Positions 5,925-50,843 of a stretch of DNA of 64,000 bases are shown here, piece after piece (position 1 is the first letter of the stretch; each line of letters starts with the position of its first letter). This stretch comes from Anaerolineae bacterium. Its GTDB lineage: Bacteria; Chloroflexota; Anaerolineae; B4-G1; DUEL01. The DNA is taken from assembly GCA_041082215.1 (NCBI GenBank), contig JBDOIF010000008.1:6036-70035 (forward strand), given 5' to 3'. The notes under the pieces were generated by a model. That model was given only the letters and a program-made list of their open reading frames with translations, made no database searches and was not told where the DNA came from. Both the position numbers and the translations under genes were made by a program.

Positions 5925-7076
5925 ATGGCCGAGTGCATTGTCTGCCAGGGAGAGTACACACCTGGTCAATTGTGCAGGCGCTGCGGCTCAGATAACCGCC
6001 CTTGGGAAGCCTGGCAGAATAGAGAACAGGGGGGGCTCGCGGGGATGCTGGCCTTCGCCGCCCCCCATTTTTATTTGCCCATTCTCGTCATCCTCCTCTC
6101 TCTTTTCTTCGGCCTGATCGGCCTGATCGGCTTCTGGAGCGGAATTCGGCCCGGCATGCGGCTTCTTGCCCTGCTGGTAGCAGTCGGCGGATGTATAGTC
6201 GTCTTTCAGGACGTCTACAGCCACCGTCGCGCCATCCGCCTGCAGAGGCTGCTGGACCGGGTAAGGAGGGGATGGGGAGTAAAGATAATGAACGCCAAGC
6301 TCTGGGCGATCATCCTCCCCGCCCTTGTTCTGCTCTCCACCTGCCCGTTGACCTACATTTTAGTTTCCTCGGATGTTCTATGGGATCTGACCCGCTGGCT
6401 CGTCTTCGAGCCGGGCTACGGTGGGCAAGTGGAGGGAGGGCTGCGCGAGCGGATACTGGAAGCGCTCCCCTTCCTGATGATGTTTGCCCATGTCGGCCTC
6501 ACGATCTCGTTTACCTATGCCTCCTCCGTTATGCTGGCCCTGCACCACGCCCAAGAGATGGATCGGGAACTGCCGCTGCCCATCTTCCTCAGGGGGGACC
6601 TCCTGGCCGAGGTGGTCCGGCGGGAGGTGGAAAGCCAGCTGGCCCGTCCGGGCGGCTATGTCATCCACACCTCGCGGGAAAAGGAAAGGTGGCTGGCCGA
6701 GGGGCAATATAAGGTCCCTGAACCCTCTAACGGAGCAGCCCTTGCTCCCCTTTATTTGCCCCCAGTCCCCGGCCCTTCCGACCAGCCTGTGCTCCCCTTG
6801 ATCCCGCCGGGGTTGCACAGCAGCAGCCGCTGGCGGGAGACGGTGGAGCGCTTCGGCCGCTGGAACTGGGAGGAGGTGGAACGGACGCCGGACGGCGGGA
6901 TCTCGATGAAAGCCCGGGGGGAGTATCAGGTGAAGAAGGGAGAGACCGAGGCCGGCTTTTCTAAAGAAAGTTCAGTGGCGGTGATTTACACTGTAAAGGC
7001 CGACCCGTGGGGCCGGATTCAGAAGATCAGCCGGAGCACGGAGGAGCAATCGAAGGATAAGGATAAGGATAAGTAG
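5925..7076 (+). CDS. hypothetical membrane protein with N-terminal zinc ribbon
   Basis: CIVCQG...CRRCG at the N-terminus, 4-5 hydrophobic helices, then a soluble C-terminal domain. The tail KDKDKDK is encoded by a GGATAA hexamer repeat (7053-7073). Confidence 0.5.
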   Translation: MAECIVCQGEYTPGQLCRRCGSDNRPWEAWQNREQGGLAGMLAFAAPHFYLPILVILLSLFFGLIGLIGFWSGIRPGMRLLALLVAVGGCIVVFQDVYSHRRAIRLQRLLDRVRRGWGVKIMNAKLWAIILPALVLLSTCPLTYILVSSDVLWDLTRWLVFEPGYGGQVEGGLRERILEALPFLMMFAHVGLTISFTYASSVMLALHHAQEMDRELPLPIFLRGDLLAEVVRREVESQLARPGGYVIHTSREKERWLAEGQYKVPEPSNGAALAPLYLPPVPGPSDQPVLPLIPPGLHSSSRWRETVERFGRWNWEEVERTPDGGISMKARGEYQVKKGETEAGFSKESSVAVIYTVKADPWGRIQKISRSTEEQSKDKDKDK

Positions 7077-7090
7077 TTGGGCCAGGCCAT

Positions 7091-7109
7091 CCCCAGGCTA
7101 AAATACACC
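7091..7109 (+). repeat. solo relic of the right end of the ~190-bp palindromic element
   Basis: CCCCAGGCTAAAATACACC versus the element end CCCCCAGGCTGAAATACACC. Lies 12 nt upstream of a -35 box. Confidence 0.35.
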
Positions 7110-7121: not shown

Positions 7122-7150
7122 TTGCCCGTCTTCCCAACTGATGGTATAAT
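7122..7150 (+). promoter_or_regulatory. sigma70-like promoter TTGCCC-17-TATAAT
   Basis: Hexamers and 17-nt spacer read directly. Upstream of the LysM/M23 gene. Confidence 0.45.
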
Positions 7151-8554: not shown

Positions 8555-11500
8555 ATGGAAAGAATATGGATTGTGGACCCGGACCCGGCCTTCTGTCAGG
8601 AATTAAAGAGAACCCTGCGTGAGGCCGGACTTCAAGTTTTCGGGATGACGCAGGTCCCCTCCCCCACCCCCTGGGAGAAAAACGATACTCTGCTTGTTGA
8701 CATAACCATACTGCCGGTGCCCACGCCACCGGAGATCGTCATCGCCCTTGTCCCCCCCGACGACAGGGCCGATCCAGCCCAGGCCCTCCGGTCCGGCGCT
8801 CATCTCTGCATTCCCAAGCTCCCCCCCTGGTTAGACTCGCTCCCCTCCCTCCTGCACAACCTCCACGCCCACAGGGAACGGGAGCAGGACCAGGCAGACT
8901 ATGACCAGGTGCTGACCCTCATGGGCGAAGGGATCGCCTTCGAGGATGCCGAGGGGCGCTTTACCTTCATCAGCCCTCATCTGGCCCGGATGCTGGGATA
9001 TGCGGAAGAAGAGCTGCTGGGCCGCCATTATACTGAGCTGATCCACCCCCACGACCGGGAACGGGCGCAGGCCGAGACGGCCAAGCGTCCCCACGGGATC
9101 GCCAGCCAGTACGAGCTGCGGCTTCTGCGGAAAGACGGCTCAGCTCTCCCGGTCTGGGTTGTAGCAACCCCCCGGATCGAAGGGGAAGTGTTCACCGGCG
9201 TAACGGTCGTTTTCCGCGATCTATCTCTTGAGAAAGAGAAAGTCAGAGCCCGCCTCCAGGCCCTCCAGCAGGTCATCTCCAGCGTCGGGGCAGAGTGGGA
9301 GCTTGTGGAGGTTTTCCGCAGGGCCCGAAACGTGCTGCGGGATATCTTCGAGGGCGTCCTGGAGGTGCTTTTCATGATCGCCGATGAGGGGGAGACGGGC
9401 ATCCTCCGTCCCATAGGCCTCCAGGAAGAATCCCCCCTGCTCGATCTGCTCGAGCAGCTCCTGGGAATTCCTGTGGCCGAAATGCGCTTCCCCCTTTCCA
9501 ACCTGCCCGTTGAGTGGCGAGAACGGATCCCCAAAGGACGTCCCTGCATCAGCCTCGACATTTCGGAACTGGGACGGATGCTCATCGGCCAGAAGGCAAC
9601 CGACACGGGCCTCCGCCTTGTCCAGGTCCAGAGTGTGGTGGCCCTGCCCCTGCGCACGGGCGGCCTCCTTCGGGGGTTGATCGTCGTGGCGATAGGCCGC
9701 CCCTACTTCCAGCAGGAGGAGCTGGACCTGGCGATGACGGTCGCTAACCTGGTGGCAGCAGCAATGGAGAGCCACGCCCTCCTGGAACAGGCCCGGCGGC
9801 GGATGGAGGACCTGAAGCGGCTGTTCGAACTCTCCCAGGCTATCGCCGCCTCCAGCGACCCCACGGAGCTGGCGACTATCGCCGCCCGACAGTTCATTCA
9901 GGCCGCCAATATGGAAGAGGCCAGCATCTACCTCTGGGACCGCGAGAGAGATGCGCTGCGCCTTGTTGTGGACCTGTACTACGACTACGAGGCGAACGTT
10001 TTTCAACACCGTCATGCTCCAGAGGTCTGCTCCCTCCAGGACGCCCCTTTCATCCGCCAGGTGCTGGAAACACGGCAGCCTCTACAGCTCCTCGCCGACG
10101 ATCCGGGCCTGGACTCTGAAACACCGGATAGCTTCCAGAGGGCCAGGGCCCGGATGAACGTCGTCCTCCCCCTGGTCCAGAAGGGGAGGAGCATCGGCAT
10201 CGTCGAGCTCAGAGACTCGGCCCGCAGGGAGCGGTTGGGGCGCGAACTGTTGAACCTGGGGATGACGCTGGCCGGGCAGGTGGCCGAAGCGCTGGAGAGC
10301 GCCCGCCTCTTCCACGAAACCCGGCAACGGGCCATCCAGTTGCAGACCGCAGCCGAGATCGCCCGACACGCCACCACCATCCTCGACGTCGAAACCCTCC
10401 TGACTCAGAGCGTAGAGCTGATCTGCGAGCGGTTCGACCTCTACTATGTCGGCATTTTCCTGCTGGACCCGACCGGGCAGTGGGCCGTCCTGCGGGCCGG
10501 TTCGGGGGAGGCGGGACGGAAGATGCTGGAGGCGGGCCACCGGCTCGAAGTGGGCGGCCCTTCTATGATCGGCTCCTGTGTTGCCCGCGGGGAGGCCCGC
10601 ATCGCCCTCGATGTGGGGAAAGAGGCGGTCCGTTTCGATAACCCCCTGCTCCCTGAGACCCATTCGGAGATGGCCCTCCCGCTGATCAGCCGGGGGCGCG
10701 TCATCGGCGCGATGACGATCCAGTCAACCCAGCCTGCCGCGTTCTCCGAAGAAGACATCACCATTCTCCAGACCATGGCCGACCAACTGGCCAACGCCAT
10801 CGAAAACGCCCGCCTTCATGAAGAGCAACAGCGTCGCCTCACCGAGCTGGCCGCTCTGTACGAGGTCGGCCGGGCCATCACCGCCATCCTCGACCCCCAG
10901 GCCCTCATCGAGGCCGTCTACGAACAGGTCAACCGCTTCATTGACGCCCCCATCTTCTACATCGCCCTGTGGGAACAGATAACCGACGCCATCCGTATCC
11001 CGGTCATTATCGAACACGGCCGGAGACTCTACGACCAGCAGGTGGGCTGGGAAGGGCTGGTGGGTTGGGTTATGCGCAGTAACCGGCCGCTCCTGGTGAA
11101 AAACCTGCAGGATGCAGGCGAACTCCCCCCCGAGGTCACGCCGCAGGTCATCGGCCACACATATCCCCTGTCCCTCGCCCTCGTCCCGCTAACCATCGGC
11201 GAGCGGGTGGTCGGTGTCCTTTCAGCCCAGAGCGAACAGGTCGGCGCCTACACCGAACAGGACCTCGATTTCCTCACCGCTGTCGCCAGTCAGGTGGCGG
11301 TCGCCGTGGAGAACGCCCGCCTCTATGAACAGGAGCGCCGTCGGGCCACCCAGGCCTCCCTCCTGAACACCGTAGCCCAGCAGGCCAACGCCATCCTCTC
11401 CGCCGAACGGCTCCTGCCCGCCGTCGCCGAGGCGATCCGTGAGCACTTCGGATACGATAGCGTCATCCTGATGCTGATAGACCCCAGGGAACGGGTCCTG

Positions 11501-14500
11501 AAGCTCGCCGGCAAGGCCGGAATGGGGACCGACGGCCTCCCCGAAGGCTTCCGTCAGTCGCTTGACCAGGGGATCATCGGCTGGGTCGCCCGCCACGGAG
11601 AGACCCTCCTGGTCAACGACACCCGGCAGGACGAGCGGTACTATGCCCCGATCCCCGACCTCTACCTGGCCGGCTCCGAACTGGCCGTCCCGCTCAAGAT
11701 CGGCGGAGAGACGGTCGGCGTGCTGGACCTGCAGTGCGTGGCAAGCTACGGGTTCGATGAGACGGACGTCGCCACGGCCCAGACGCTGGCCGAGCAGGTG
11801 GCCGTCGCGCTCCACAATGCCCGGCTTTACGAAGAGGCACGCCGCAGAGCAGAGGAGCTGGCCGCCCTTAACGCTGTGGCCGCCCGGCTGGGGCAGTCCC
11901 TGGAGCTGGAAGAGGTGCTGAACGGAGCGATGGAGGAAGTGACCCGCGTGCTGGGAGTCGAGGCCTCCGCCGTCAGCCTGGTAGATGAGGAAACGAATGA
12001 GGTGGTCCTGAAAGCCCAATACGGCCTCCGATACTCCCACCTGGGTATGCGGATCCCCCTGGGAGAGGGCCTCTCCGGCATAGTGATCCGAACCGGCGAA
12101 CCCCTGATCACCGGCGATGTCAGCCAGGACCCCCGGCTGGCGGTCCGGGAGTTTGCCCGGGAGAAGGTGCAGGCGATGGTCATGGTGCCCATCCACTCCC
12201 GTGGCAAGGTCGTGGGCATCCTCAGCGCTATGAGCCATTTCCCCCACGAATTCGACGAACGGGAGATCACTCTGCTGAAGGGTATCGCCAACCAGGTGGG
12301 GGCGGCTGTGGAGAACGCCCGCCTCTTCGAGGCCGAGCGCTCTCAGCGGCAGATGGCGGAAACACTCCGCAGCGTCGCCACCGTCCTCACCTCCACCCTG
12401 GAGCTGGGACAGGTCCTGGACTGGCTGCTGGACCATCTGGAACGGCTGGTAGCCCACGACCGGGCAAAGGTGATGCTGCTCCACGACGGACGGCTGCGGG
12501 TGATGGCTACCCACGGCTACGACCAGCACCCTGATGGCAGCCCTATGCTGGGCCGCCTGATCTCCCTGGCCGAAGCCCCCCTCCTGCGGGAAGTCGTGCA
12601 GGGAAAGAAACCGGTTGTGGTCACGGACCCCTCCACCGACCCCCGCTGGTGGCATAAAGAGGGGCTCTGGCGCTCCGAAAGCTGGATCGGAGTGCCGTTG
12701 ATCGTGCGGGATGAGGTGATCGGCGTTCTGACCGTATCACGGAAGGCCCCGCCCCGCTTCACCCCAAAAGAGGCAGCCCTGGTGACCGACATTGCTGTCC
12801 AGGCTGCCGTTGCTATCGAGAACGCCTACCTGTACGAAGAGGCCCGCCGCCAGACCCGCGAGCTGGCCGCTATGTACCGCATCGCCACCACTGTGGGCCG
12901 CTCGCTGGACCTGCCCGCCGTCCTTTCGGAGACGCTGACCCACGTGACGGAACTGATCAACCTGCAGGCCGGGGCGATCTTCCTGCGGGAGCAGGCCGGC
13001 CAATGGATGACCCTGGCAGCCCACCGCAAGCTCCCGGAAGGGGCAGAAAGAAACCTGCATACGGTCTATCTCGGAGAGGGTCCCCTCGGTAAGGCCGCGC
13101 TGCGGACAGAGGTAAGCCAGCTCCCGGTGTGGGAGATCTTCTGCGGCGAGGCGAAGGAAGAGGGGGAAGGGACAACAACAGGGGTGGTGGTACCCCTGCG
13201 GGTGCGGGGGCGGGTGATCGGAGCTATGGCCCTCGGCTCCCCCCACGCGGAGGAGATCCAGCCCGCCACGATCCGCCTGCTGGATACCGTCGCCCGCCAC
13301 CTGGCGGTGGCGATCGAGAACGCCCGGCTCTACGCCGAGATGGAAAACCGTGAGCAGATGGCCCGCGCCCTCTACCAGGTCACCCGTCACCTCACCTCAC
13401 TGGACCCCCATCAGATACCGGAGCGGGTGCTGGTGGAGCTCCGGCACGTGATCGCCTACGATGTGGCCGGCGTGCTGATCCGGGGGGATGCTGGCGCCGA
13501 TCTGATGCTCCACGTCGCCACGCCTTGCAGCCGGGGGGAACTCCAGGAGGCGGAAAACCGGCTGCTGGAGGGGTTCCGGCTTCTGGGCGGCGGGCCGATC
13601 CGACCGGATGAGATCAACCGATCCGTCTGGTCGCAGGTGGAACTCAGCCCTGAAACCTCCGGGGAGCCGGGGTTCCGATCCTATCTCAGCGCACCCCTCG
13701 TGGTGGGCGAGCGGCTGGCCGGCCTCCTCCAGCTCCTGTGTCGCCAGGCCGATGCCTACGACGAACAGGCACAGCGGCTTATCCTCATCGTCGCCAACCA
13801 GGTGGCGACAGCGGTCGAGAACGCCCAGCTCTACCAGGCAGTGCGGGAGCACGCAGCCAACCTGGAGGAGGCGTACAGACAGCTCCAGGAGGTGGATAAG
13901 CTCAAGGACGAGCTGATCCAGAACGTCTCCCACGAGCTGCGTACCCCCCTCACCTTCGTCAAGGGGTATGTGCGGTTGATGAGGGAGGAGGAACTGGGGC
14001 CGCTCACACCAGACCAGCAGAAGGCGCTGGAGGTGATGGACCGCAAGACCGATCACCTGGCCCGCCTGGTCAGCGACATTGTGACGCTGGAAACGGTCAG
14101 CCGGGAGACGCTGGAGATCAGGCCGACCGACCTGGTACAACTGGCACAGATGGCACTGGAGGCCTGCCGCCCGGCTGCTGTCGAGGCCGGGATTGAGCTA
14201 TGCACGGAGATCCCTCCCAGGCTTCCCCCTGTCCTGGCCGATTGGGCCCGCATCAGCGAGGTCTTCGACAACCTCCTGGCCAATGCCATCAAGTTCAGCC
14301 CGGATGGAGGGACGATCACCGTCCGGATGGAGGAGGAGAAAGACGCCGTGCGGGTCGAGATCTCCGACACCGGCATTGGCATCCCCAGAGATAAGCTCGC
14401 CCGCATATTCGACCGGTTTTACCAGGTAGACGGCTCTACCCGTCGGCGGTTCGGCGGTGCCGGCCTGGGACTGGCCATCGTCAAGCGGATCGTCGAATCC

Positions 14501-14581
14501 CACGGCGGGAAGGTGGGGGTGGAGAGCGAACCGGGGAAGGGGAGCACCTTCCACTTCACCCTCCCCAAAGCATCGCTGTAG
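8555..14581 (+). CDS. giant sensor histidine kinase: REC-like, PAS, ~9 GAF domains, HisKA, HATPase_c
   Basis: 2008 aa. The GAF-terminal motif ENARL(Y/F)EE recurs 9 times. H-box SHELRTPL. G-boxes DTGIGI and [10 protein letters not shown]. Confidence 0.9.
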
Positions 14582-14634
14582 GTTGCTCTCTTCTTTGACC
14601 ACGGATGCCATTCCAACCACCGGACAGTCTTGCA

Positions 14635-14812
14635 GATCACGAATCCCACGAATCAGACAAATGGCACAAATGGTGCGAAGCTGGGTAATGACCTGCCCAC
14701 GTAGCGCAGGCCGCCAGGCCTGTTTCGCGCAGGCTAACAGCCTGCGCTACGTAAGAACTGCCCGGAAATATCCGCATTCGTGAAACTCGGCCTGTTCGCG
14801 TCATTCGCGATG
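14635..14812. repeat. palindromic element of 9-bp CGAAT/CAAAT units (short family, copy D1) with internal alternative hairpins
   Basis: The left arm GATCACGAATCCCACGAATCAGACAAATGGCACAAATGG mirrors the right arm ...CATTCGTG...GTTCGCGTCATTCGCGATG. The second copy is at 39589-39706. Confidence 0.6.
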
Positions 14813-16012
14813 AGCAAAGAAGCCACCGGCAGCCTGTTCCTCAAGCCGGGACGGGAGCGGTCCGTCCTCCGCCACCACCCCTGGGTCTTCTCCGGAGCAG
14901 TTGCCCGCATCGAGGGACAGCCCACTGACGGGGATGTGGTGGAAGTGCGGGATGCCGCCGGGGCCTGGCTGGGCCGGGGCTACCTCAACCGCCGCTCCCA
15001 GATCGTCGTCCGGCTCCTCACCTGGGACCCCGAAGAGCGGGTGGACGGGACCTTCTGGCACAGGCGGCTGGAGCGGGCCGTGGCGGCCCGCAAAGGGCTG
15101 GAACGGGACCCCACTACCACCGCCTGCCGGCTTGTCCACGCCGAGTCGGACGGCCTGCCGGGGCTGGTGGTTGACCGGTACGGAGATTACCTGGCCGTGC
15201 AGTTCCTCACCCTGGGGGTGGAGCTGCGCCGCCAGGCAATCCTGGACAGCCTGGTGCAGCTTCTTACCCCCCGGGGGATCTTCGAGCGGTCCGATGTGGA
15301 GGTCCGGGAAAAGGAGGGGCTTCCCCCCCAAACGGGACATCTGCGGGGAGAACAGCCGCCGGACCGGCTGGAGGTACGGGAAGGCGGCCACCGCTTCCTG
15401 GTGGACATCCGCTCCGGTCAGAAGACGGGGTTTTATCTGGACCAGCGGGAGAACCGGGGACGACTCCCCCCTTTCTGCGCTGGGGCTGAGGTGCTGGACG
15501 GCTTCGCCTACACTGGAGCCTTTGGCGTCTACGCGGCGTCGGGCGGCGCGGCCCGGGTGACCTTTGTGGAGAGCTCCGGCCCGGCGCTGGCAATGGCCCG
15601 CCAGAACATGGCCCTCAACGGCCACCGGCCAGAGGCACACGAGTTCGTCGAGGGGAACATGTTCCAGACGTTGCGGCAGTTTGAGGCCGAGGGCCGACGG
15701 TTCGACGTCGTCGTCCTGGACCCGCCCAAGTTTGCCCCATCGGCCCAGGACGTACAGCGGGCAGCCCGGGCCTATAAGGACGTCAACCTGCTGGCCTTCC
15801 GGCTGCTCCGACCCGGCGGTGTGCTTTTTTCCACTTCATGCTCCGGGGCGGTCTCCGCCGACCTCTTTCAGAAGATCCTCTTTGGCGCAGCGGTTGACGC
15901 GGGGCGGGAGGCTCAGATCATCGGCTATCTGCATCAGGGGGCCGACCACCCGGTGGCTCTCACCTTCCCCGAAGGGGCATACCTCAAGGGGCTGATCTGC
16001 CGCGTGTGGTAG
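14810..16012 (+). CDS. rlmI: class I SAM-dependent rRNA (cytosine-C5) methyltransferase, RlmI-like
   Basis: N-terminal LKPGRERSVLRHHPWVFSGAV (PUA-like) and a C-terminal methyltransferase fold. I chose the start at ATG 14810 because the longer ORF start (14780) lies inside repeat D1. Confidence 0.75.
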   Translation: MSKEATGSLFLKPGRERSVLRHHPWVFSGAVARIEGQPTDGDVVEVRDAAGAWLGRGYLNRRSQIVVRLLTWDPEERVDGTFWHRRLERAVAARKGLERDPTTTACRLVHAESDGLPGLVVDRYGDYLAVQFLTLGVELRRQAILDSLVQLLTPRGIFERSDVEVREKEGLPPQTGHLRGEQPPDRLEVREGGHRFLVDIRSGQKTGFYLDQRENRGRLPPFCAGAEVLDGFAYTGAFGVYAASGGAARVTFVESSGPALAMARQNMALNGHRPEAHEFVEGNMFQTLRQFEAEGRRFDVVVLDPPKFAPSAQDVQRAARAYKDVNLLAFRLLRPGGVLFSTSCSGAVSADLFQKILFGAAVDAGREAQIIGYLHQGADHPVALTFPEGAYLKGLICRVW

Positions 16013-16016: not shown

Positions 16017-16790
16017 TCAATCCCGCTGCATCGCCACCCAGCGGCCGCTTTCCCTCCTCACCCAAAGGACCGGCTCCCCGCCGACCAGGGAGGGGCGGAG
16101 CCTTCCCCTCGTATCCACCATCCCTTCGGTCAGGAGCTGCCCATCCACCGCCTGTACACGGGCCACGCCCGCCGCCAGCAGGGTCGGGACGGGCTGGAGG
16201 CCCTCCAGCTCCCGCAGTCGTCCGCGAAGGATGAAGCGGCCGTCCTCGCCGGAGGCGGCCAGCCCCACGGCCGCCAGCGCGCCGACCGCCCCGCTCCCGT
16301 CTCCCCCCAGGCCCCGCAGGATCAGCCCGGCCTGATCGGCCAGGATGTGGGCCTCGGCCAGGGTGACCAGCGTCTCCTTCGCCTTCCGGCCAAAGGCCAT
16401 CACCGATGCCGGCACCTGCCAGGCCAGACAGAGGCCAGGATCGCTGCCGGGGGCGGCCCGCTCCATCACCCACCGGCCCACGAGCCAGGCCATCTCCTCC
16501 AGCTCCGCCGCCCCATCCGCCTCCAGATGGATCACCGCCGCGCTGTTGCGAGCGGTCATCGGCACCCGGGGGTCCTGCAGTAGCTGGTGCCGGGTGACGC
16601 CGAAGAGGGGGAACCGTTCCCCCAGGCGACCGGCGATCTCCCGCGCCAGCCTGCCCGTACCCGGCGATCCGGGCATGTCCGTATCGTCCAACCCGATCCA
16701 GATCACTTGACGAGACCTCGCAGGGATGATATAGTGCTCGTGCACAGAGTGTCTAACGTTTGACGTTTGACGTTTGACGTCAAACGTCAA
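16017..16790 (-). CDS. hypothetical protein with an N-terminal GLDDTD motif (TiaS N-terminal-like? uncertain)
   Basis: Long ORF. The first ~28 codons are encoded by the heptamer palindrome, so the real start is probably GTG 16706 (VIWIGLDDTDMPG...). Confidence 0.45.
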   Translation of the reverse strand: MTFDVKRQTSNVRHSVHEHYIIPARSRQVIWIGLDDTDMPGSPGTGRLAREIAGRLGERFPLFGVTRHQLLQDPRVPMTARNSAAVIHLEADGAAELEEMAWLVGRWVMERAAPGSDPGLCLAWQVPASVMAFGRKAKETLVTLAEAHILADQAGLILRGLGGDGSGAVGALAAVGLAASGEDGRFILRGRLRELEGLQPVPTLLAAGVARVQAVDGQLLTEGMVDTRGRLRPSLVGGEPVLWVRRESGRWVAMQRD

Positions 16791-16804
16791 GCGTCAAACG
16801 TCAG
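16753..16804. repeat. 52-bp near-perfect palindrome made of (GACGTTT)3 / (AAACGTC)3 heptamers
   Basis: Centre is GACGTC at 16776-16781. Only 2 mismatches in 26 pairs. Lies in the divergent intergenic region. Confidence 0.9.
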
Positions 16805-20266: not shown

Positions 20267-20295
20267 ATTATAAACTGGAGTCCGCTTTCCTGCAA
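20267..20295 (-). promoter_or_regulatory. sigma70-like promoter TTGCAG-17-TATAAT for tRNA-Leu (and possibly tig-clpP)
   Basis: Read on the minus strand. The -10 is 12 nt upstream of the tRNA 5' end. The -35 is 10 nt from the left end of element copy 1. Confidence 0.5.
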
Positions 20296-20305
20296 GGAGC
20301 AGCGG

Positions 20306-20495
20306 GGCGTATTTCAATTTCGGGGCGAGTGATCCTCTCGCCCGCCGGTGGATCGCGAATCCCACGAATGGCCCGAATACAGCAAATAAGAGGGGTACCT
20401 GCTCCATTCGCGGTATTCGTTTCCATTTGCGTCATTCGTGTTTCCCCAGGTCCGGCCCGGGCCAGGGACATCTCGCCCCCAGGCTGAAATACACC
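20306..20495 (+). repeat. ~190-bp palindromic CGAAT-unit element, copy 1
   Basis: Terminal inverted repeats GGCGTATTTCA.../...TGAAATACACC. 4 GAAT units at 9-bp spacing, an ~18-nt centre, then 4 ATTC units. Confidence 0.9.
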
Positions 20496-20512
20496 TGGAG
20501 CGGCGCGCTGAC

Positions 20513-20540
20513 TTGACGCATCCCCTGCGGATGGTATCAT
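20513..20540 (+). promoter_or_regulatory. candidate promoter TTGACG-16-TATCAT
   Basis: 17 nt downstream of element copy 1. Very close to the downstream start codon, so uncertain. Confidence 0.3.
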
Positions 20541-24941: not shown

Positions 24942-25733
24942 TTATGTCAACGTTTCACGTGAAACGTCCGGCTCTGTCGGTCGGGGGAGGCGGCGAAGGG
25001 CCCAGATGGCAGCGGCGGCGGCGAGGGCGAAGAGGAACACCACCCCCTCAACCGCCTCCAGAGCCCAGCCGCTCTGGGCCAATCCCACCGCCATTCCGTC
25101 CACCAGGGCGTGGCCGAGGATGGCTGCCCCCAGCCAGAGCAGGTTGTTGTGGGTGAGGGAGCGGACCACCATCAGGCTCCAGGCGATGTGCATGGTGATG
25201 GCGAAGGCGCGCTCCAGCCCTCCCAGGAGCGGCATGTACCAGGGCGTGGCCCAGAACGCCTCCACCTGCGCCTGGGCCTGTTCCAGCATCTCGCCGGAAA
25301 GCCCCAGCGCACCCAGGTCCGTCCCGCGCAGGGCCAGCATCTGGACAAAGGTGATAAGGACAGCCAGGGCGGTGAGGAGGGATTCAACCCCACCGTGTCC
25401 TGCGCCAAAGGCCACCCCCTGACCCCAGGAGCGGGCCTCCCGTCGCCAGAACCGGAGCACCAGGTAGCGGGCCACCTCCTCGCAGACGCCCGCGCTGAGG
25501 CCGGCAACAGCGGCCATCAGCGGGATGGGCCACAGCGCCACGCCACGCCCACCCGTCAGGAGGCCCAGCCCCCAGTTCAGGGGGAGATGGACCACCTGGG
25601 AAGCGACGAATGTGAGGACCCCCGCCCCGATCAACCCCCAGGTGACCCCCGGCCAGCGTCGGACCAGCAACCAGAGGGCTATGGGCAGGACAAGCATGAT
25701 GAGGATCTCCAGGCTGAGCGTTGCGTACAACAT
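24942..25733 (-). CDS. YhfC-family intramembrane metalloprotease-like protein
   Basis: Polytopic. CEEVARY (ExxxR) and paired His motifs. Start chosen at MLYATLSLEIL (ATG 25733). The last 6 codons are encoded by the palindrome. Confidence 0.6.
   Translation of the reverse strand: MLYATLSLEILIMLVLPIALWLLVRRWPGVTWGLIGAGVLTFVASQVVHLPLNWGLGLLTGGRGVALWPIPLMAAVAGLSAGVCEEVARYLVLRFWRREARSWGQGVAFGAGHGGVESLLTALAVLITFVQMLALRGTDLGALGLSGEMLEQAQAQVEAFWATPWYMPLLGGLERAFAITMHIAWSLMVVRSLTHNNLLWLGAAILGHALVDGMAVGLAQSGWALEAVEGVVFLFALAAAAAIWALRRLPRPTEPDVSRETLT
24950..24967. repeat. perfect 18-bp palindrome ACGTTTCACGTGAAACGT
   Basis: Read directly. Related to the GACGTTT heptamer family. Overlaps the 3' end of the YhfC-like CDS. 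Confidence 0.9.
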
Positions 25734-28021: not shown

Positions 28022-28417
28022 TTATTGACCGTTCTCCCGGAGCCAGTGGGCCAGCGCCCGATGAAAAGCGGCAGCGACCTCGTCGGTGCTGTAGCCCAGG
28101 CGACGAGCCTCCTCCAGGGAGCTGAGAAGGATGCTGTGGAGTTTTTCCTCCCGCAGGCGAGCCATCTGCTTCTCATCGGGCATCCCGGCGACAAAGGTGC
28201 CCCGCCCCCGCTGAGTAGTGATCACCCCATCCCGGTCCAGTTCCAGGTAGGCGCGGGCCACTGTATTATAATTTACCCGCAGATCGGTCGCCAACTGACG
28301 GATGGTGGGGAGCTGATCGCCAGGCCGGAGCTGCCCTGCGGCGATCATCGCCCGCACCTGCTCCTCGATCTGAATGTATATGGGAACCTTGCTATCCGGT
28401 TCAATCCGCAGCTTCAT
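28022..28417 (-). CDS. GntR family transcriptional regulator (YtrA-like, short)
   Basis: wHTH LPTIRQLATDLRVNYNTVARAYLELDRDGVI. Alternative start at 28432. Confidence 0.85.
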   Translation of the reverse strand: MKLRIEPDSKVPIYIQIEEQVRAMIAAGQLRPGDQLPTIRQLATDLRVNYNTVARAYLELDRDGVITTQRGRGTFVAGMPDEKQMARLREEKLHSILLSSLEEARRLGYSTDEVAAAFHRALAHWLRENGQ

Positions 28418-28429
28418 AGCCGGTTGAAT

Positions 28430-28467
28430 CATATTGAGCTAATGAAATATTGAACTAACTCAATATG
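28430..28467. promoter_or_regulatory. candidate GntR operator: inverted repeat CATATTGAG-N20-CTCAATATG
   Basis: 9-bp arms at 28430-28438 and 28459-28467, immediately downstream of the -10 box in an AT-rich island. Confidence 0.4.
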
Positions 28468-28496
28468 ATTATATCATACCGGGACGGTTTTGTCAA
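28468..28496 (-). promoter_or_regulatory. consensus sigma70 promoter TTGACA-17-TATAAT for the GntR operon
   Basis: Both hexamers are perfect on the minus strand. The -35 is 17 nt from the edge of element copy 2. Confidence 0.6.
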
Positions 28497-28513
28497 GTCC
28501 CCCAGACTGAAGA

Positions 28514-28702
28514 GGTGTATTTCAGTTTGGGGGCGAGATGTCCCTGGCCCGGGCCGGACCCCGGGGAACACGAATGGCGCGAATGGAAACGAATACCGCG
28601 TATGGAGCAGGTATCCCTCCTGTTCGCCGTATTCGGGCCATTCGTGGGATTCGCGATCCACCGGCGAGCCGGAAGACCACTCGCCCCGAATTGAAATACG
28701 CC
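28514..28702 (-). repeat. ~190-bp palindromic CGAAT-unit element, copy 2 (inverted orientation)
   Basis: Aligns end to end with the reverse complement of copy 1. Confidence 0.9.
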
Positions 28703-28718
28703 CCCCGCCCTCTCGTTT

Positions 28719-28746
28719 TTGTGACCTTCTGCAACAGTGGTATAAT
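28719..28746 (+). promoter_or_regulatory. sigma70-like promoter TTGTGA-16-TATAAT
   Basis: 16 nt beyond element copy 2. Upstream of the LuxR-Kelch gene. Confidence 0.45.
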
Positions 28747-28805
28747 CATACCAGGCAGGTTGCGAAGGGAGGTAGCTCCCGGGCAGGAATTGGGAGAGAA
28801 AGACA

Positions 28806-30125
28806 GTGGCCGAGTATGGGGAGCCGCTGAGCGAGCGAGAGCTGGAGGTCCTTCAGCTCGTCGCCACGGGCGTCACCAACAAGCAGATCGCGCATCGGCT
28901 CGGCATCAGCACCAATACCGTCAAAGTCCATCTGCGCAACATCTTCGCCAAGCTGGGGGCCGAATCCCGCACCGAAGCGACGATGATCGCCATCCAGCAG
29001 GGCTGGGTCGCCGTCCCCCAGGAAGAGGCCTACCCGCTCCCGGCCACCGCGCCCCCTCTCCCCCCCTCCCTCCCTGTCCCCCTCCCCCGGCACCGCCGGG
29101 CAGCGCTTCTCCTCGCCGCCCTGCTGGCAGCCCTGGGTGGCATCCTCTCCTGGCCTCGCTCCTCCCCAGCCGCCAACCCAACCGGGCTTCTCCCCCCTGG
29201 AGGAGGAGGAGAGCAGGGACAGCTCGTCGGCCTTGGGGAGGGAAGCCGCTGGACCGAGCGGGCACAGATGCCTACCCGTCGGGCCTGGCTGGGGCTGGCC
29301 GCCTACGCCGAGCGGCTCTATGCTATCGGCGGAGAAGGACCCGATGGACCGAGCAGCTCGGTGGAGGTCTACGACCCGGAAAGCGATACCTGGAGCCGGG
29401 GGACGCCCAAATCCACCCCGGTCGCCTACGTGGCGGCTGCCCTACTGGGGGACCGGATCTTCGTCCCCGGCGGATGCGCCGACGGCGGAGAAGCCCTGGC
29501 CCTGGCCGAAGCCTACCGACCTGCGACCGACACATGGGAGAAGGTCCCCTCCCTCCCCCATCCCCTCTGCGCCTACGCTCTGGCTGTCCACGAAGGACGC
29601 ATCTACCTCTTCGGCGGCACCGACGGAGACAGCTACCTGGCCAACACGCTTGTCTATATCCCCGAGGAGGGCCGATGGGAGGAACGCTCCCCCATGCCTC
29701 AACCGCGGGCACTGGCGGCAGCAGCCCCGCTGGAGGGAAAAATCTACGTGGTCGGCGGCTACCGGGACGGACGGGAGTTGACGACCTGCACAGCCTATGA
29801 CCCGCAGAGGGATACGTGGGAAAGCTGCACGCCGCTCACGATGGCCCGGGGCGGGCTGGGCCTGGTCCCCCTGGCCGGGCAGCTCTACGCCATCGGCGGC
29901 GGCGGCTGGGGAGGGTACCTCGGCTTCAACGAGCAGTACGTGTCGGCAGAGGCCCGCTGGATAGCGGTGGAAACGCCGCTGACGCGGGAATGGCAGGGAG
30001 CCGGGATTGCCCTGCTCGACCAGGTCATCTATGCCGCCGGGGGCTACAGCGACGACTATCTGAGCCTGACCCTGGCCTTCGAGCCGTTCCCCTTCCGTAT
30101 CTTCATCCCCGCTACCGAGCGATAG
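28806..30125 (+). CDS. membrane-anchored LuxR-family HTH regulator with extracytoplasmic Kelch beta-propeller
   Basis: GTG start. LSERELEVLQLVATGVTNKQIAHRLGISTNTVKVHLRNIF, one TM (AALLLAALLAALGGILSW), then repeated Kelch-like blades (...LYAIGG, ...IFVPGG, ...IYLFGG, ...IYVVGG, ...LYAIGG, ...IYAAGG). Confidence 0.75.
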   Translation: MAEYGEPLSERELEVLQLVATGVTNKQIAHRLGISTNTVKVHLRNIFAKLGAESRTEATMIAIQQGWVAVPQEEAYPLPATAPPLPPSLPVPLPRHRRAALLLAALLAALGGILSWPRSSPAANPTGLLPPGGGGEQGQLVGLGEGSRWTERAQMPTRRAWLGLAAYAERLYAIGGEGPDGPSSSVEVYDPESDTWSRGTPKSTPVAYVAAALLGDRIFVPGGCADGGEALALAEAYRPATDTWEKVPSLPHPLCAYALAVHEGRIYLFGGTDGDSYLANTLVYIPEEGRWEERSPMPQPRALAAAAPLEGKIYVVGGYRDGRELTTCTAYDPQRDTWESCTPLTMARGGLGLVPLAGQLYAIGGGGWGGYLGFNEQYVSAEARWIAVETPLTREWQGAGIALLDQVIYAAGGYSDDYLSLTLAFEPFPFRIFIPATER

Positions 30126-30128
30126 CCG

Positions 30129-30319
30129 GACGTATTTCAATTTCGGGGCGAGTGGTCCTCCCGCCCGCCGGTGGATCGCGAATCTCACGAATGGCCCGAA
30201 TACGGCGAACAGGAGGGATCCCTGCCCCATTCGCGGTATTCGTTCCCATTCGCGCCATTCGTGTTTCCCCGGATTCCGGCCCGGGCCAGGGACATCTCGC
30301 CCCCAGACTGAAATACACC
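30129..30319 (+). repeat. ~190-bp palindromic CGAAT-unit element, copy 3
   Basis: Full-length match to copy 1. Starts 3 nt after the upstream stop codon. Confidence 0.9.
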
Positions 30320-30336
30320 CGCGATAACCCCCACTG

Positions 30337-30365
30337 TTGCCCGGCCCGACAAGGTGCGGTATAAT
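30337..30365 (+). promoter_or_regulatory. sigma70-like promoter TTGCCC-17-TATAAT
   Basis: 17 nt beyond element copy 3. Upstream of the cyclase gene. Confidence 0.5.
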
Positions 30366-30397: not shown

Positions 30398-32176
30398 ATG
30401 CAAGAGAAGGAGTGTTCTGTGAACCATCCCGATCCACAGGCCCCCTTTCCGGGCGGCGAATCGCTCGCCCGCATCCGACAGGAACTGGCCGAGATGGCCC
30501 GCCTCCTGGCACGCCATCAGGCCGGGCCTGCCAGCCCCCTGGCGATGAGCCTCACCCCCTACCTCCAGCACCTCAACGGATCCCTCGACTATCTGGAAAA
30601 AGAGCTGGCCGCCCAGGCCGACGAACGGGCCCAACTGGCCTCCCTGGCCGAAGTGGCCCGCGTGGTCAACTCCTCCCTCGACCTGAGCGAGGTCCTCAAC
30701 CGGGTGATGGACGAGATCATCCGCATCACCGGCGCGGAACGGGCCTTCCTGATGCTGGTGGATCCGGAGACCGGGAGCCTGGAGTTCCGCGCCGCGCGGA
30801 ATATGGACCAGGAGACGATCGCCGACTCCGCCTTCGAGATCAGCCGCAGCGTGGTCTACCGGGTGGCCCAGGAAGGGGAGCCGGTGGTCACCACCGACGC
30901 CCAGCTGGACCCCCGCTTTATGGGCAGGGAGAGCATCGTCAGCTACAACCTCCGCTCCATCCTCTGCGTCCCCCTGCGGGTGCGGGACCGGATCACCGGC
31001 GTCATCTACGCCGACAACCGCATCCGCACCGGCATCTTCGACGACCGGGACCGGGACCTGCTGGCCGCCTTCGCCGACCAGGCCGCCATCGCGATCGAGA
31101 ACGCCCGCCTTTTCGAGAGCGTCACCGCCGCCAAGGCGCTGATGGACAACATCTTCGCCTCCATCGCCAGCGGCGTCATCACAACTGACGAGGAGGATAT
31201 GATCACCCTGGTCAACCAGGCCGCCGAACGCATCCTCGCCGTCTCCGCCGAAGAGACGGCGGGCCGTCCCCTCGCCGAGGCCCTCCCCGCCCTCTTCCCC
31301 CACCTGAAAGGGCTGATAGACCAGATCCGGCGAAAAGATCAACCCCTCCTGCGCTGGGAACTGGAGCCAGAGCTGCCCCAGCGGGGCCGGGTCAACCTCA
31401 GCGTGAGCCTCTCCCCGTTGAAAGACCCCGAACAGCGACGGCTGGGCACCGCCCTGGTGGTGGACGATCTGACCGAACAGCGGCGGCTGGAGGCCCGCGA
31501 ACGGTTCATCCGGGAGACCTTCCAGCGGTATGTCTGCCCCGCCGTCGTGCAGCGGCTGCTGGAAGACCCCGGCAGCCTGAAGCTCGGAGGCCACCGGCAG
31601 GAGGTCACCATCCTCTTCGCCGACATCCGCGGCTTTACCGCCTTCAGCGAATACCTGGACCCCGAGGAGCTGGTGGAGGTGCTCAACCGGTATCTGGCCA
31701 TCGGCGCGGATGCGGTGCTGGCGGAGGAGGGGACCCTGGATAAGTTTATGGGAGACGCGGTGATGGCGATCTTCAACGCCCCCCTCCCCCAATCAGACCA
31801 TACGCTCCGGGCCGTGCGGGCAGCGCTGCGGATGCAGGAGGCGATCCGGTCCTACCACAGGAGCGCCCCGCCCGCCCATCATCTCGCCTACGGCGTGGGG
31901 ATCGCCGTGGGAGAGGCGGTGGTGGGCAACGTCGGCACCGCCCAGCAGTTGAACTATACCGCCATCGGGGCCAGCGTCAACCTGGCCAAGCGGCTCCAGG
32001 AGAACGCCGCCGCCGGCCAGGTCCTGCTCGACCAGGCCGCCTACGAACGGGTCGAAGGATGGGTGCTCGCCCGGCCGCTCCCCCCGATAGAGGCCAAAGG
32101 ATTCACCGCACCGGTGCCGGTCTACGAGCTGTTGGGGCTGCGCGATTCAGCGCCCCCTCAGTCCCCCCAACGCTGA
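30398..32176 (+). CDS. GAF-PAS class III adenylate/guanylate cyclase
   Basis: GAF (ENARLFES end motif), PAS (ITTDEEDMITLVNQAAERIL) and cyclase motifs ILFADIRGFT and GDAVMAIFNAP. Confidence 0.85.
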   Translation: MQEKECSVNHPDPQAPFPGGESLARIRQELAEMARLLARHQAGPASPLAMSLTPYLQHLNGSLDYLEKELAAQADERAQLASLAEVARVVNSSLDLSEVLNRVMDEIIRITGAERAFLMLVDPETGSLEFRAARNMDQETIADSAFEISRSVVYRVAQEGEPVVTTDAQLDPRFMGRESIVSYNLRSILCVPLRVRDRITGVIYADNRIRTGIFDDRDRDLLAAFADQAAIAIENARLFESVTAAKALMDNIFASIASGVITTDEEDMITLVNQAAERILAVSAEETAGRPLAEALPALFPHLKGLIDQIRRKDQPLLRWELEPELPQRGRVNLSVSLSPLKDPEQRRLGTALVVDDLTEQRRLEARERFIRETFQRYVCPAVVQRLLEDPGSLKLGGHRQEVTILFADIRGFTAFSEYLDPEELVEVLNRYLAIGADAVLAEEGTLDKFMGDAVMAIFNAPLPQSDHTLRAVRAALRMQEAIRSYHRSAPPAHHLAYGVGIAVGEAVVGNVGTAQQLNYTAIGASVNLAKRLQENAAAGQVLLDQAAYERVEGWVLARPLPPIEAKGFTAPVPVYELLGLRDSAPPQSPQR

Positions 32177-36359: not shown

Positions 36360-37778
36360 ATGTTCTCTACTTTAGAAGAAGCTCGCCGCTTTGTTGAGAA
36401 GCAAAATGTGCAGATGATTGACCTCAAGTTCACCGATCTCTGGGGCCGATGGCATCACCTCTCTCTCCCCGCTGACCGGCTCACCCCTGCCCTGATGGAA
36501 GACGGAGTGGGGTTCGACGGCTCGGCGCTGGGCCTCAAATCGGTCAAGGCCGGGGATATGGTGCTGATACCCGACCTCTCCACCGGATTTCTCGACCCTT
36601 TCTGGGAGCTCCCCACCCTCAGCTTCATCTGCACCACCCTGGAGGCGGATACGAAAAAGGTCTTCGCCAACGATCCTCGCAACGTCGCCCGGCAGGCCGA
36701 GGCATACCTGCGCCAGACCGGCATCGCCGATGAGAGCCGGTGGGGGCCGGAGTTCGAGTTCTACGTCTTCGACCGGGTGTCCTACGAATACGGGATGAAC
36801 CGCTGCGGCTACGTGATCGAATCGAGAGAGGCGGATTGGGGAGACGGGAACCGGGAGCAGGCCCATGCTGTCCCCCCCCACGGGGGCTACCACGCTATCC
36901 CCCCTGCGGACACCCTCTACAACCTGCGCTCCGAAATGGTCCGTTGCCTCCAGGGGATGGGGGTACCGGTCAAATACCACCACCACGAAGTGGGCGGGCC
37001 GGGGCAGTGCGAGATCGAAACGCCGATGATGGGGCTGGTGGAGGCCGGCGACGCGGCGATGAAAATCCGATACGTTACCAGGATGGTCGCCCGCGCCCAT
37101 GGACTCACGGTCACCTTTATGCCCAAACCGCTCTACGGAGAGGCCGGGAACGGGATGCATTTCCACCAGCACCTTTTCAGGGACGGCCAGAACCTCTTCT
37201 ACGCCCCGCAGGGGTACGGGCTGCTCAGCCAGCTCGCCCTCTCCTATATCGGCGGGCTCCTGAGCCACGGACCGGCCCTCCTGGGGCTGGTCAGCCCCAG
37301 CACCAACTCCTTCCGCCGTCTGGTGCCGGGGTACGAAGCCCCGGTCAACGCTTTCTTCTCCCTCGGCAACCGCAGCGCCGCCGTCCGTATCCCCCGCTAC
37401 GCCACCCGCCCCGACGCGGTGCGGATCGAGTTCCGCCCCCCGGACGGGACCTGCAACGTCTATCTGGCGATGGCGGCGCAATTGATGGCCGGGCTGGATG
37501 GCATCCGACAGGGGATAGACCCAACCAGGGCGGGCTTCGGGCCGGTTGACGCCGATATCTTTTCCTGGACCGAGGAGCAGCGGGCGACGATCCGGCCCCT
37601 GCCGACCTCGCTGGATGCTGCCCTGGATGCTCTTTCCGCCGACCGGGCCTTCCTTCTTACCGGCGAGGTCTTCAGCGACGATTTAATCGAACGCTGGATC
37701 GGCCAGAAGCGGGAAGAGGCGCGCGCCGTGCGGCTGCGGCCCCATCCGTATGAGCTGCGATTGTACTATGATGCCTGA
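36360..37778 (+). CDS. glnA: glutamine synthetase, type I
   Basis: 472 aa colinear with GSI. Starts MFSTLEEARRFVEKQNVQMIDLKFTD. Its stop TGA is the first unit of a TGAC heptamer array. Confidence 0.9.
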   Translation: MFSTLEEARRFVEKQNVQMIDLKFTDLWGRWHHLSLPADRLTPALMEDGVGFDGSALGLKSVKAGDMVLIPDLSTGFLDPFWELPTLSFICTTLEADTKKVFANDPRNVARQAEAYLRQTGIADESRWGPEFEFYVFDRVSYEYGMNRCGYVIESREADWGDGNREQAHAVPPHGGYHAIPPADTLYNLRSEMVRCLQGMGVPVKYHHHEVGGPGQCEIETPMMGLVEAGDAAMKIRYVTRMVARAHGLTVTFMPKPLYGEAGNGMHFHQHLFRDGQNLFYAPQGYGLLSQLALSYIGGLLSHGPALLGLVSPSTNSFRRLVPGYEAPVNAFFSLGNRSAAVRIPRYATRPDAVRIEFRPPDGTCNVYLAMAAQLMAGLDGIRQGIDPTRAGFGPVDADIFSWTEEQRATIRPLPTSLDAALDALSADRAFLLTGEVFSDDLIERWIGQKREEARAVRLRPHPYELRLYYDA

Positions 37779-37803
37779 CGCTTGACGTATGACGTATGAC
37801 ACA
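37776..37803 (+). repeat. heptamer tandem array TGACGCT TGACGTA TGACGTA TGACACA
   Basis: Read directly. TGA falls in all three frames. Confidence 0.9.
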
Positions 37804-39588: not shown

Positions 39589-39706
39589 GATCACGAATCC
39601 CACAAATCAGGCAAATGACACGAATTGCGCGAAACCGGCTCGAACAGGGCCAGTATTGGCCCGGAAACATTCGCGAGATTCGGCCCATTCGCGTCATTTG
39701 CGATCA
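39589..39706. repeat. palindromic CGAAT/CAAAT-unit element, short family copy D2
   Basis: GATCACGAATCCCACAAATCAGGCAAATGACACGAAT...ATTCGCGTCATTTGCGATC. Its first 35 nt nearly match D1. Confidence 0.6.
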
Positions 39707-42114: not shown

Positions 42115-42170
42115 ATGACGGATGACGGATGACGGATGACGAATGACGAATGACGAATGACGAATGAGGG
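42115..42170 (+). repeat. heptamer tandem array (ATGACGG)x3 (ATGACGA)x4 ATGAGGG
   Basis: Read directly. 8 units between ccsA and the radical SAM gene. Confidence 0.95.
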
Positions 42171-47197: not shown

Positions 47198-47356
47198 TTC
47201 GCTCGCCGGTGGATCGCGAATCCCACGAATGGCCCGAATACAGCGAACAGGAGGGATACCTGCTCCATTCGCGGTATTCGTTTCCACTTGCGCCATTCGT
47301 GTTTCCCCAGGTCCGGCCCGGGCCAGGGACATCTCGCCCCCAAACTGAAATACACC
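47198..47356 (+). repeat. ~190-bp palindromic CGAAT-unit element, copy 4 (left ~30 nt missing)
   Basis: Matches copies 1/3/6 from ...CGCCGGTGGATCGCGAATCCC to ...TGAAATACACC. The left terminal repeat is absent. Confidence 0.85.
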
Positions 47357-47372
47357 TACTTCAGGGCCTCCC

Positions 47373-47401
47373 TTGTGAAAATGGGCCAGTCGTGGTAAAA
47401 T
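47373..47401 (+). promoter_or_regulatory. sigma70-like promoter TTGTGA-17-TAAAAT for tRNA-Phe
   Basis: 16 nt beyond element copy 4. The -10 is 30 nt upstream of the tRNA. Confidence 0.5.
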
Positions 47402-50813: not shown

Positions 50814-50843
50814 CGAATCACGAATGACGAATGACGAATGACG
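50765..50843 (+). repeat. compound tandem repeat: (GTCAGGCGTCAAAC)x2.4 then (ATGACGR)x6
   Basis: Read directly. Spans the 3' end of the gamma subunit and the spacer to hdrA. Confidence 0.95.

Follow-up and report, generated by a model that had tools for sequence, protein, structure and literature searches.

Why does a short palindromic element recur directly upstream of promoters in the genome of an Anaerolineae bacterium, and did the element come to the promoters or the promoters to the element? The question is raised by positions 28430-28746 of a 64-kb stretch of contig JBDOIF010000008.1 (assembly GCA_041082215.1), hereafter the window, where a preliminary description had placed a 190-bp element between outward-facing promoters at a fixed distance of 16-17 nt. 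Here we report that the element is a 192-bp mobile, non-coding miniature inverted-repeat transposable element (MITE) with a non-random spacing to promoters, and that it probably reached its present positions by inserting upstream of promoters that already existed.

Copies were located by BLAST of the region against the window, which is a single contig stretch, combined with multiple alignment and a fuzzy search for the ends. Six copies and one relic of the left (L) end were found; R denotes the right end.

20305-20496, minus strand: copy 1, between divergent promoters
28513-28703, plus strand: copy 2, the copy of the original observation, with the L end AGGTGTATTTCAG... and the R end ...GAATTGAAATACGCCC
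30128-30320, minus strand: copy 3
About 47201-47357, minus strand: copy 4, R end lost (about 36 nt gone), L end intact
56977-57168, plus strand: copy 5, in the last codons of hdrC and 11 nt ahead of the ATG of hdrB
63073-63264, minus strand: copy 6, lying 1 nt past the stop codon of a metallophosphoesterase gene
7080-7109, minus strand: L-end relic of about 30 nt (GGTGTATTTTAGCCTGGGGATGGCCTGGCC), right after the stop codon of the gene at 5925-7076

The copies share 87-93% identity and are related in a star-like pattern, with an element diversity (pi) of about 0.10; the L half (0.095) and the R half (0.106) are equally conserved, and two blocks, one of them GGGGCGAGATGTCCCTGGCCCGGGCC, are almost invariant. 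The element is rich in G+C and palindromic over almost its full length. Its interior consists of four CGAAT motifs spaced by 9-10 nt and then four ATTCG motifs, and folding of one strand gives a single long hairpin in either orientation (energy -102 kcal/mol, z about -5). The terminal inverted repeats (TIRs) are imperfect and about 24 nt long (L, A/GGGTGTATTTCAGTCTGGGGGCGAG; R, CTCGCCCCGAAATTGAAATACGCCC); comparison of the L end GGTGTATTTCAGTCTGGGGGCGAG with the reverse complement of the R end GGCGTATTTCAATTTCGGGGCGAG gives 20 matches in 24 positions, and the TIRs are present in all intact copies.

Evidence for transposition was sought by comparing the left and right 16-nt flanks of each full-length copy, with the left flanks set against the right flanks of other copies as control. 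Four of the five full-length copies (1, 3, 5 and 6) are bordered by a 9-bp target-site duplication (TSD) that matches at 8 of 9 positions and stands in identical register; the control 9-mers matched at 4.4 of 9 positions on average and at 6 at most.

20296-20304 and 20497-20505: TSD of copy 1, GGAGCAGCG and GGAGCGGCG
30119-30127 and 30321-30329: TSD of copy 3, GCGATAGCC (which includes the stop codon TAG of the LuxR-Kelch gene) and GCGATAACC
56968-56976 and 57169-57177: TSD of copy 5, GTCGGAGAG and GTCGGAGGG
63064-63072 and 63265-63273: TSD of copy 6, CCTCAGGAT and CCTCGGGAT

Each pair differs at one of the nine positions, always by a transition. Because the 9-mer repeats start 1 nt outside the previously noted edges, in the same register in four copies, the element has to be extended by 1 nt at either end and is 192 bp long, not 190.

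Copy 5 separates an hdrC-like gene (Fer4) from an hdrB-like gene (CCG domain). In two relatives (L011 and L012, with HdrB proteins 84% and 88% identical), hdrC-hdrB is intact with a 4-nt overlap, which constitutes the empty site for this copy. In-silico removal of copy 5 (192 bp) together with one TSD restores the ATGA stop/start overlap and an HdrC C-terminus like those of the relatives (...LLDRLGVKGDGE in L011, ...VGVVGEEEE in L012); the gene in the window ends inside the element with ...GVGESCISV*. The empty-site comparison rests on copy 5, since synteny around copies 1-4 and 6 is not conserved in the relatives. With its TIRs, a TSD of constant length and variable sequence, an empty site, small size, no coding capacity and dispersed copies, the element is a mobile, non-coding MITE. 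As a side observation, hdrB is followed in both relatives by a small gene with 23S_rRNA_IVP/bAvd domains (L011 1679-2071, L012 1312-1713); the open reading frame (ORF) at 58138-58791 of the window is larger.

The promoters were examined by scanning 150 nt outward from all 12 ends under one fixed rule: the two hexamers had to match at 3/6 and 4/6 positions or more and at 8/12 or more together, the spacer had to measure 16-18 nt, and the -10 box had to carry A2 and T6. Promoter-like sites were found at only seven of the 12 ends; they are given here together with the site beside the relic.

28468-28496, minus strand: promoter of the GntR operon, TTGACA-17-TATAAT (12/12, extended -10), with the -35 box 16 nt from the L end of copy 2
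28719-28746, plus strand: LuxR-Kelch promoter, TTGTGA-16-TATAAT, with the -35 box 15 nt from the R end of copy 2
20513-20540, plus strand: promoter of the LysM-LTD gene, TTGACG-16-TATCAT, 7 nt past the L-side TSD of copy 1
20267-20295, minus strand: tRNA-Leu promoter, TTGCAG-17-TATAAT, abutting the R-side TSD of copy 1
30337-30365, plus strand: promoter of the GAF-PAS-cyclase gene, TTGCCC-17-TATAAT, 7 nt past the L-side TSD of copy 3
47373-47401, plus strand: tRNA-Phe promoter, TTGTGA-17-TAAAAT (extended -10), 9+6 nt from the L end of copy 4
63281-63309, plus strand: promoter at copy 6, TTGACT-17-CATAAT, 7 nt past the L-side TSD
7122-7150: promoter-like site near the relic, TTGCCC-17-TATAAT, 12 nt from the relic

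A second, independent promoter scan returned the same sites, and the numbers of promoter-like sites exceeded those in shuffled sequence (9 vs 1.3 in 20-31 kb; 6 vs 2.7 in 45-64 kb). The sites are correctly placed 5' of the tRNA-Leu, tRNA-Phe, GntR, LuxR-Kelch, LysM and GAF-PAS-cyclase genes. The site at 7122-7150 is followed by a leader of about 175 nt with several hairpins ahead of the gene at 7331; this leader had no Rfam match.

All gap distances and hexamers of the preliminary description were reproduced by the fixed-rule scan. Measured from the originally noted edges, the -35 box lies 17 nt from the L ends of copies 1, 2, 3 and 6, 16 nt from the L end of copy 4, and 16 and 10 nt from the R ends of copies 2 and 1, respectively. 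The distance of 16-17 nt holds for six ends on that count; with the corrected ends it becomes 15-16 nt and consists of the 9 nt of the duplication and 6-7 nt of host DNA before the -35 box (7 nt beyond the 9-mer at the L ends of copies 1, 2, 3 and 6; 6 nt at two ends, L of copy 4 and R of copy 2). The statement that the spacing is conserved and the sequence is not was correct, the spacer being unrelated host DNA, though 9 of its 15-16 nt are a product of transposition. The view that both ends behave alike holds only in part: copies 1 and 2 also have a promoter at the R end, but overall five L ends compare with two R ends, and the R ends of copies 3, 4 and 6 are without a promoter-like site. 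Wherever a copy adjoins a promoter, its L end faces one, and this promoter-proximal end is retained in the two truncated copies (copy 4 and the relic). With the -35 hexamer counted as -35 to -30, the staggered cuts fall at about -43 and -52.

The spacing of the element to promoters is non-random. Among 3767 non-element intergenic positions, 30 (0.8%) would put a promoter-like site 6-7 nt past a 9-bp duplication; five of six insertion events have this geometry (binomial P about 2e-10 against random intergenic insertion). About eight of the 12 distinct intergenic promoter-like sites of the window touch a copy or the relic, and none of the larger non-coding stretches contains a copy (397 nt at 33776, convergent; 470 nt at 35139, divergent; 210 nt at 47508).

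Passive survivorship would account for such a pattern if an inert element inserted at random and spacers of 9-22 nt left only a sliver in which both neighbours are spared. The spacers were indeed tiny before insertion, with 9 nt between the stop codon TAG and the -35 box at copy 3, 17 nt between stop codon and -35 box at copy 6, and two back-to-back -35 boxes 16 nt apart at copy 1; in addition, the insertions are old, and copy 5 is a surviving insertion away from promoters. Even under this narrower null model, however, about 19-27 positions per site would leave the -35 box and the stop codon (or, in its place, the other -35 box) unharmed, and six ends at 6-7 nt would have a probability of about 1e-4 to 1e-5 (our own estimate). 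Some 1.3 kb of larger non-coding DNA, convergent 3' regions included, is without a copy, and 7 nt is not a required minimum because the tRNA-Leu promoter tolerates 0 nt. Survivorship of this kind is therefore a rather improbable source of the pattern.

The relative age of promoters and insertions can be read from the flanks. The divergence of the TSDs (1/9) equals the pairwise divergence of the copies (about 10%), which would stem from a single transposition burst. Because the TSD copies differ at 1/9 of their positions, the flanks have altered by only a few per cent since insertion, and this change is too small for promoters matching 9-12 of 12 positions to have been built afterwards at six or seven sites. 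The -10 context GTGGTATAAT is common to the regions upstream of the LuxR-Kelch gene in the window and of its orthologues in L008 and L017, where the element is absent, and two of the promoters serve tRNA genes, which needed promoters before the insertion. Since the flanks are little changed, the -10 context is conserved without the element and tRNA genes are served, the comparison shows that the promoters pre-date the insertions and that the element came to them.

The converse, that the promoters were carried by the element or evolved after its insertion, could be suggested by the multiple alignment of the copies, where the -35 and -10 boxes line up along with the element. The hexamers nevertheless lie outside the TSDs, on the host side, in sequence that is unrelated between copies; together with the small divergence of the flanks and the LuxR-Kelch -10 context conserved in species without the element, this effectively refutes element-borne or element-created promoters, and we consider such an origin extremely improbable.

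The palindromic core of the element has relatives of its own. Stand-alone palindromes with homologous arms, (A/G)GATCACGAATCCCRCGAATGG...ATTCGCGTCATTCGCGATGAG, occur in the window and in other species, as do related CGAAT arrays.

14628-14822 of the window: CGAAT-arm element of about 195 bp, MITE-like, differing in centre and termini (TCTTGCAGATCACGAAT...ATTCGCGATGAGCAAAGAAG)
39589-39705 of the window: stand-alone 4+4 CGAAT palindrome, starting exactly 18 nt past a stop codon
2856-2937 of L008 (hydrothermal-vent relative): CGAAT palindrome, starting 18 nt past a stop codon
6562-6690 of L008: CGAAT palindrome
718-749 of L009: member of the CGAAT palindrome family
1398-1423 of L017: CGAAT 9-mer array, CACGAATTA three times, directly past the stop codon of the LuxR-Kelch orthologue, at the contig end

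The flanks of the element at 14628-14822 (14617-14627 and 14823-14832) read CCACCGG(A)CAG on both sides (CCACCGGACAG / CCACCGGCAG), which is probably a TSD. No promoter-like site adjoins the stand-alone palindromes (window 14628 and 39589; L008; L017). To judge from these sequences, the CGAAT palindromes seem to form a repeat family of greater age in this Chloroflexota clade, and the 192-bp element looks like such an older CGAAT core joined to outer arms of about 55 nt that bear the terminal repeats. The spacers between the CGAAT motifs are not complementary between the arms, and the arrays could be repeated protein-binding sites, such as subterminal transposase-binding sites, which fit better than a selected hairpin.

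A function in transcription may be considered against this background. Insertion could have been nearly random and copies kept or spread only where an end came to lie at about -52 of a promoter, the element having been exapted as an upstream module. An activator, an architectural protein or the C-terminal domain of the RNA polymerase alpha subunit (alpha-CTD) would then bind the end GAAATAC (about -57 to -62), the block GGGGCGAGATGTCCCTGGCCCGGGCC or the phased CGAAT arrays; in a variant, the 190-bp palindrome would be extruded as a cruciform and buffer promoter supercoiling. Such a module would be in keeping with the share of intergenic promoter-like sites that touch a copy or relic (about 8/12), with the promoter-facing L end and its retention in copy 4 and the relic, with the two near-invariant blocks, and with the CGAAT motifs, whose phasing of 9-10 bp and non-complementary spacers resemble a set of binding sites rather than a hairpin. 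Against it, CGAAT palindromes also occur without a promoter (copy 5 in hdrCB, window 14628-14822 and 39589-39705, L008 2856-2937 and 6562-6690), and the 15-16 nt beside the -35 box are unrelated host sequence. The diversity of about 0.10 equals the TSD divergence, as expected under neutral decay, and the longest run of invariant positions stands out only slightly (about 0.06, our own estimate). If insertion were random, selection could arrive at one exact position only through a vast number of events, most of them harmful. The arrangement is also not that of an UP element or a class I activator site, as positions -36 to -51 are unrelated host DNA and the CGAAT arrays begin only at about -102/-111. 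An exapted module thus appears unlikely, and the upstream activator or architectural platform of the preliminary description is weakened by the family members that lie away from promoters. The arrays, there placed at about -85 to -200, in fact extend from about -102/-111 to -184/-193 (about -111 to -193 from the L-side promoter).

A terminator-insulator, also proposed there, would be a long hairpin that stops or processes transcripts of the upstream gene just ahead of the next promoter. The stable fold (z about -5 in both orientations) would suit this role, as would the location of copies 3, 4 and 6 and the relic, which lie between a stop codon and the next promoter and are entered from the R end; copy 5, within an operon, has the opposite orientation. 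An orientation pattern of four against one is too small to carry weight, however, and no canonical terminator was found in any copy: none of 25 terminator-like sites falls in a copy on either strand, and both tRNA genes have a hairpin and T-run. Copies 1 and 2 stand between divergent promoters where nothing reads in, copy 5 lies within an operon, compensatory changes were found in 1 of 73 predicted hairpin pairs among the copies, and the pre-insertion sites of copies 3 and 6 were too small for a terminator. The fixed distance to the -35 box would moreover be left unexplained. We regard this role as very unlikely.

An insertion preference for a promoter-proximal target had also been listed among the possibilities in the preliminary description and is now favoured by the TSDs, the TIRs, the empty site and the greater age of the promoters. 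On balance, we think it probable that a MITE inserted position-specifically upstream of existing promoters and that selection then acted in very compact spacers. We infer that target choice, rather than selection alone, sets the distance, and the feature recognised is inferred likewise. A DDE-type transposase encoded elsewhere presumably acts in trans and would bind the terminal repeats and perhaps the CGAAT arrays; the parent insertion sequence (IS) would share the ends GGKSGTATTTCA... and produce 9-bp TSDs. The 9-bp staggered cuts of integration would be made upstream of the -35 box, leaving 6-7 bp between, and in most cases the L end would come to face the promoter; selection in the compact genome would then purge insertions elsewhere. 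The transposition complex may read the state of the promoter, either as bound RNA polymerase holoenzyme or sigma factor, or as distorted or bent, easily melted AT-rich DNA. A promoter-specific state rather than a sequence would be recognised because the targets share only the TTG that opens the -35 box, and copy 5 shows that a promoter is not essential. The GC content at third codon positions of curated genes is mostly above 80%, and AT-rich promoters stand out from it. The idea that the -35 region mimics a transposon end was dropped, as no convincing similarity was apparent by eye. More tentatively, and with some doubt, we suggest that a Chloroflexota transposon family reads promoter architecture, with the holoenzyme, sigma region 4 or DNA bent by alpha-CTD guiding the cuts at about -43/-52.

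Several observations weigh against position-specific insertion. Copy 2 has no TSD (its flanking 9-mers are AGACTGAAG and CCCGCCCTC), and its L flank (28499-28511) holds 13 nt of the inner L repeat in inverted orientation, CCCCCAGACTGAA, which points to a more complex history; copies may have recombined, or the element may have inserted next to an older remnant. The ends of this copy keep the standard 9+7 and 9+6 nt geometry despite the missing TSD. (A similar sequence, CTGAAGTA, stands beside the L end of copy 4 at 47358-47365.) Copy 5 is without a promoter-like site on either side in the 150-nt scan, the tRNA-Leu promoter lies 0 nt beyond the TSD and departs from the 6-7-nt rule, 12 nt separate the relic from its -35 box, and the target sites have no common motif beyond the TTG of that box. 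The bias towards the L end and its retention in truncated copies could point to a function. The tiny pre-insertion spacers narrow the tolerated positions to roughly 20 per site, and the insertions are old (about 10% divergence), so that survivorship had time to shape the pattern. Neither a transposase nor an autonomous parent IS was identified, and there is no further TIR pair within the 64-kb window. The pattern comprises six copies and one relic (seven ends) in one window.

The element was also searched for in public data. A concatenated six-frame translation of the consensus had no homologue among 5.8 billion proteins. At the gathering threshold of Rfam, only the two tRNAs scored within the window, and nothing credible was obtained for 28400-28800 at E<=10. 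A plasmid collection yielded no match, exact-pattern scans of genome and metagenome contig collections without the source genome or its close relatives gave only chance matches in unrelated coding sequences, and relatives reached via the LuxR-Kelch and HdrB homologues yielded no 192-bp copies. In four public runs (SRR27730030/41/42, SRR28530377; L002-L005), short-read contigs of this organism encode 100% identical proteins and cover the same loci only. Logan contigs hold the identical GntR promoter junction and then end inside the element, as expected because the element is a multi-copy repeat. The element copy in these contigs, P0001 (1521-nt contig) and P0121 (1494-nt contig) included, differs slightly from the copy in the window, with GGCCTGGGCC in place of GGCCCGGGCC. 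The host genome is GC-rich, and the closest named homologues are annotated as metagenome-assembled genomes of Anaerolineae, Thermoflexia or Chloroflexi.

Other repeats of the window include tandem heptamer arrays (ATGACGG/ATGACGA, TGACGTA) at 42115-42165, 50797-50843 and 37770-37800, which fill gaps between stop codon and ribosome-binding site and hold a CGAAT pentamer with a 7-nt period. GACGTTT heptamers followed by inverted AAACGTC, as (ACGTTTG)x3 and (ACGTCAA)x3, occur at 16756-16804 and also at 24950-24975 and 50768-50795; these arrays stand directly 5' of TAGACA-18-TATCAT at 16755 (minus strand) and TTGACA-17-TATACT at 24925 (minus strand) and have an operator-like look. The ORF at 8555-14581 (2008 aa) contains many GAF-like repeats about 500 bp apart (families D3 and D4; motif ...VENARLYE...), and the VENARLYE motif is also present in the GAF-PAS-cyclase gene (30398-32176).

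If the geometry holds genome-wide, it would represent a 'safe-haven' strategy of a mobile element in a very compact genome, a natural promoter-marking tool in a poorly studied phylum, and a testable case in which a transposase may interact with the transcription machinery. A family that reads promoters would, if it exists, occupy most sigma-70-type promoters of the genome. If selection made the pattern instead, the element would be a widely reused promoter-upstream module. Short-read assemblies of the lineage are fragmented by the element exactly at promoters.

By its structure, the element is an ordinary bacterial MITE; unusual are its constant position at unrelated, pre-existing sigma-70-type promoters and the high promoter occupancy. 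Replication forks, specific genes (Tn7 at glmS), REP hairpins, terminators and short consensus sequences are among the known targets of bacterial transposons. To our knowledge, no such transposon has been reported to insert upstream of unrelated promoters with a constant spacing to their -35 box, and literature searches returned nothing specific on this repeat or on promoter-targeting bacterial IS elements. The Correia elements of Neisseria (CREE/NEMIS) are MITEs of 100-150 bp with TIRs that abound in intergenic regions near genes, form hairpins in transcripts and influence neighbouring promoters. The present element shares the TIRs, the intergenic location near genes and the hairpin-forming capacity. 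Correia elements duplicate TA, supply promoter hexamers from their own ends and carry a site for integration host factor (IHF); in contrast, the element described here has a 9-bp TSD of arbitrary sequence, and both hexamers are host DNA 15-16 nt away. Repetitive extragenic palindromes (REP/BIME/REPIN, moved by RAYT transposases) are 20-40 bp long, have a GTAG/CGTC head and no TSD, and often follow stop codons directly. The likeness to them lies in the repeated extragenic palindromes, often directly past stop codons; with 192 bp, the ends A/GGGTG...CGCCC and 9-bp TSDs, the element is not one of them. In IS elements that form hybrid promoters, an outward -35 box inside the terminal repeat lies at variable distance from a host -10 box. 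Here, too, a transposon end lies near a host promoter element, with consequences for expression, but both hexamers are outside the TSD, in host DNA and at a fixed distance, and an IS or MITE with an outward or hybrid promoter can be rejected.

MITEAba12 of Acinetobacter has a length of 113 bp, 16-bp TIRs and 9-bp TSDs and is moved in trans by ISAba12 (PMC6382973). Like the present element, it is small, non-coding, multi-copy and located beside genes whose transcription it could affect; it is AT-rich, with predicted internal outward promoters and no reported fixed relation to host promoters (PMC6382973). The element of the window differs in being GC-rich and a near-full palindrome, in having host promoters outside the TSD at constant distance, and in the lack of a known parent IS.

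With respect to function, the nearest parallels appear to be eukaryotic retrotransposons that insert upstream of tRNA genes. Ty3 and DGLT-A integrate at fixed positions upstream of such genes via the RNA polymerase III machinery (TFIIIB/TFIIIC) (PMC6101501). The present element likewise lies at a defined distance upstream of transcription units in a gene-dense genome and avoids coding DNA, and two of its seven promoters serve tRNA genes. It differs in being derived from a bacterial DNA transposon and in its association with sigma-70-type promoters, and tethering is here only proposed. Should a Chloroflexota transposon family indeed read promoter architecture, it would be the first prokaryotic counterpart of the Ty3/DGLT-A type of integration directed by the transcription complex.

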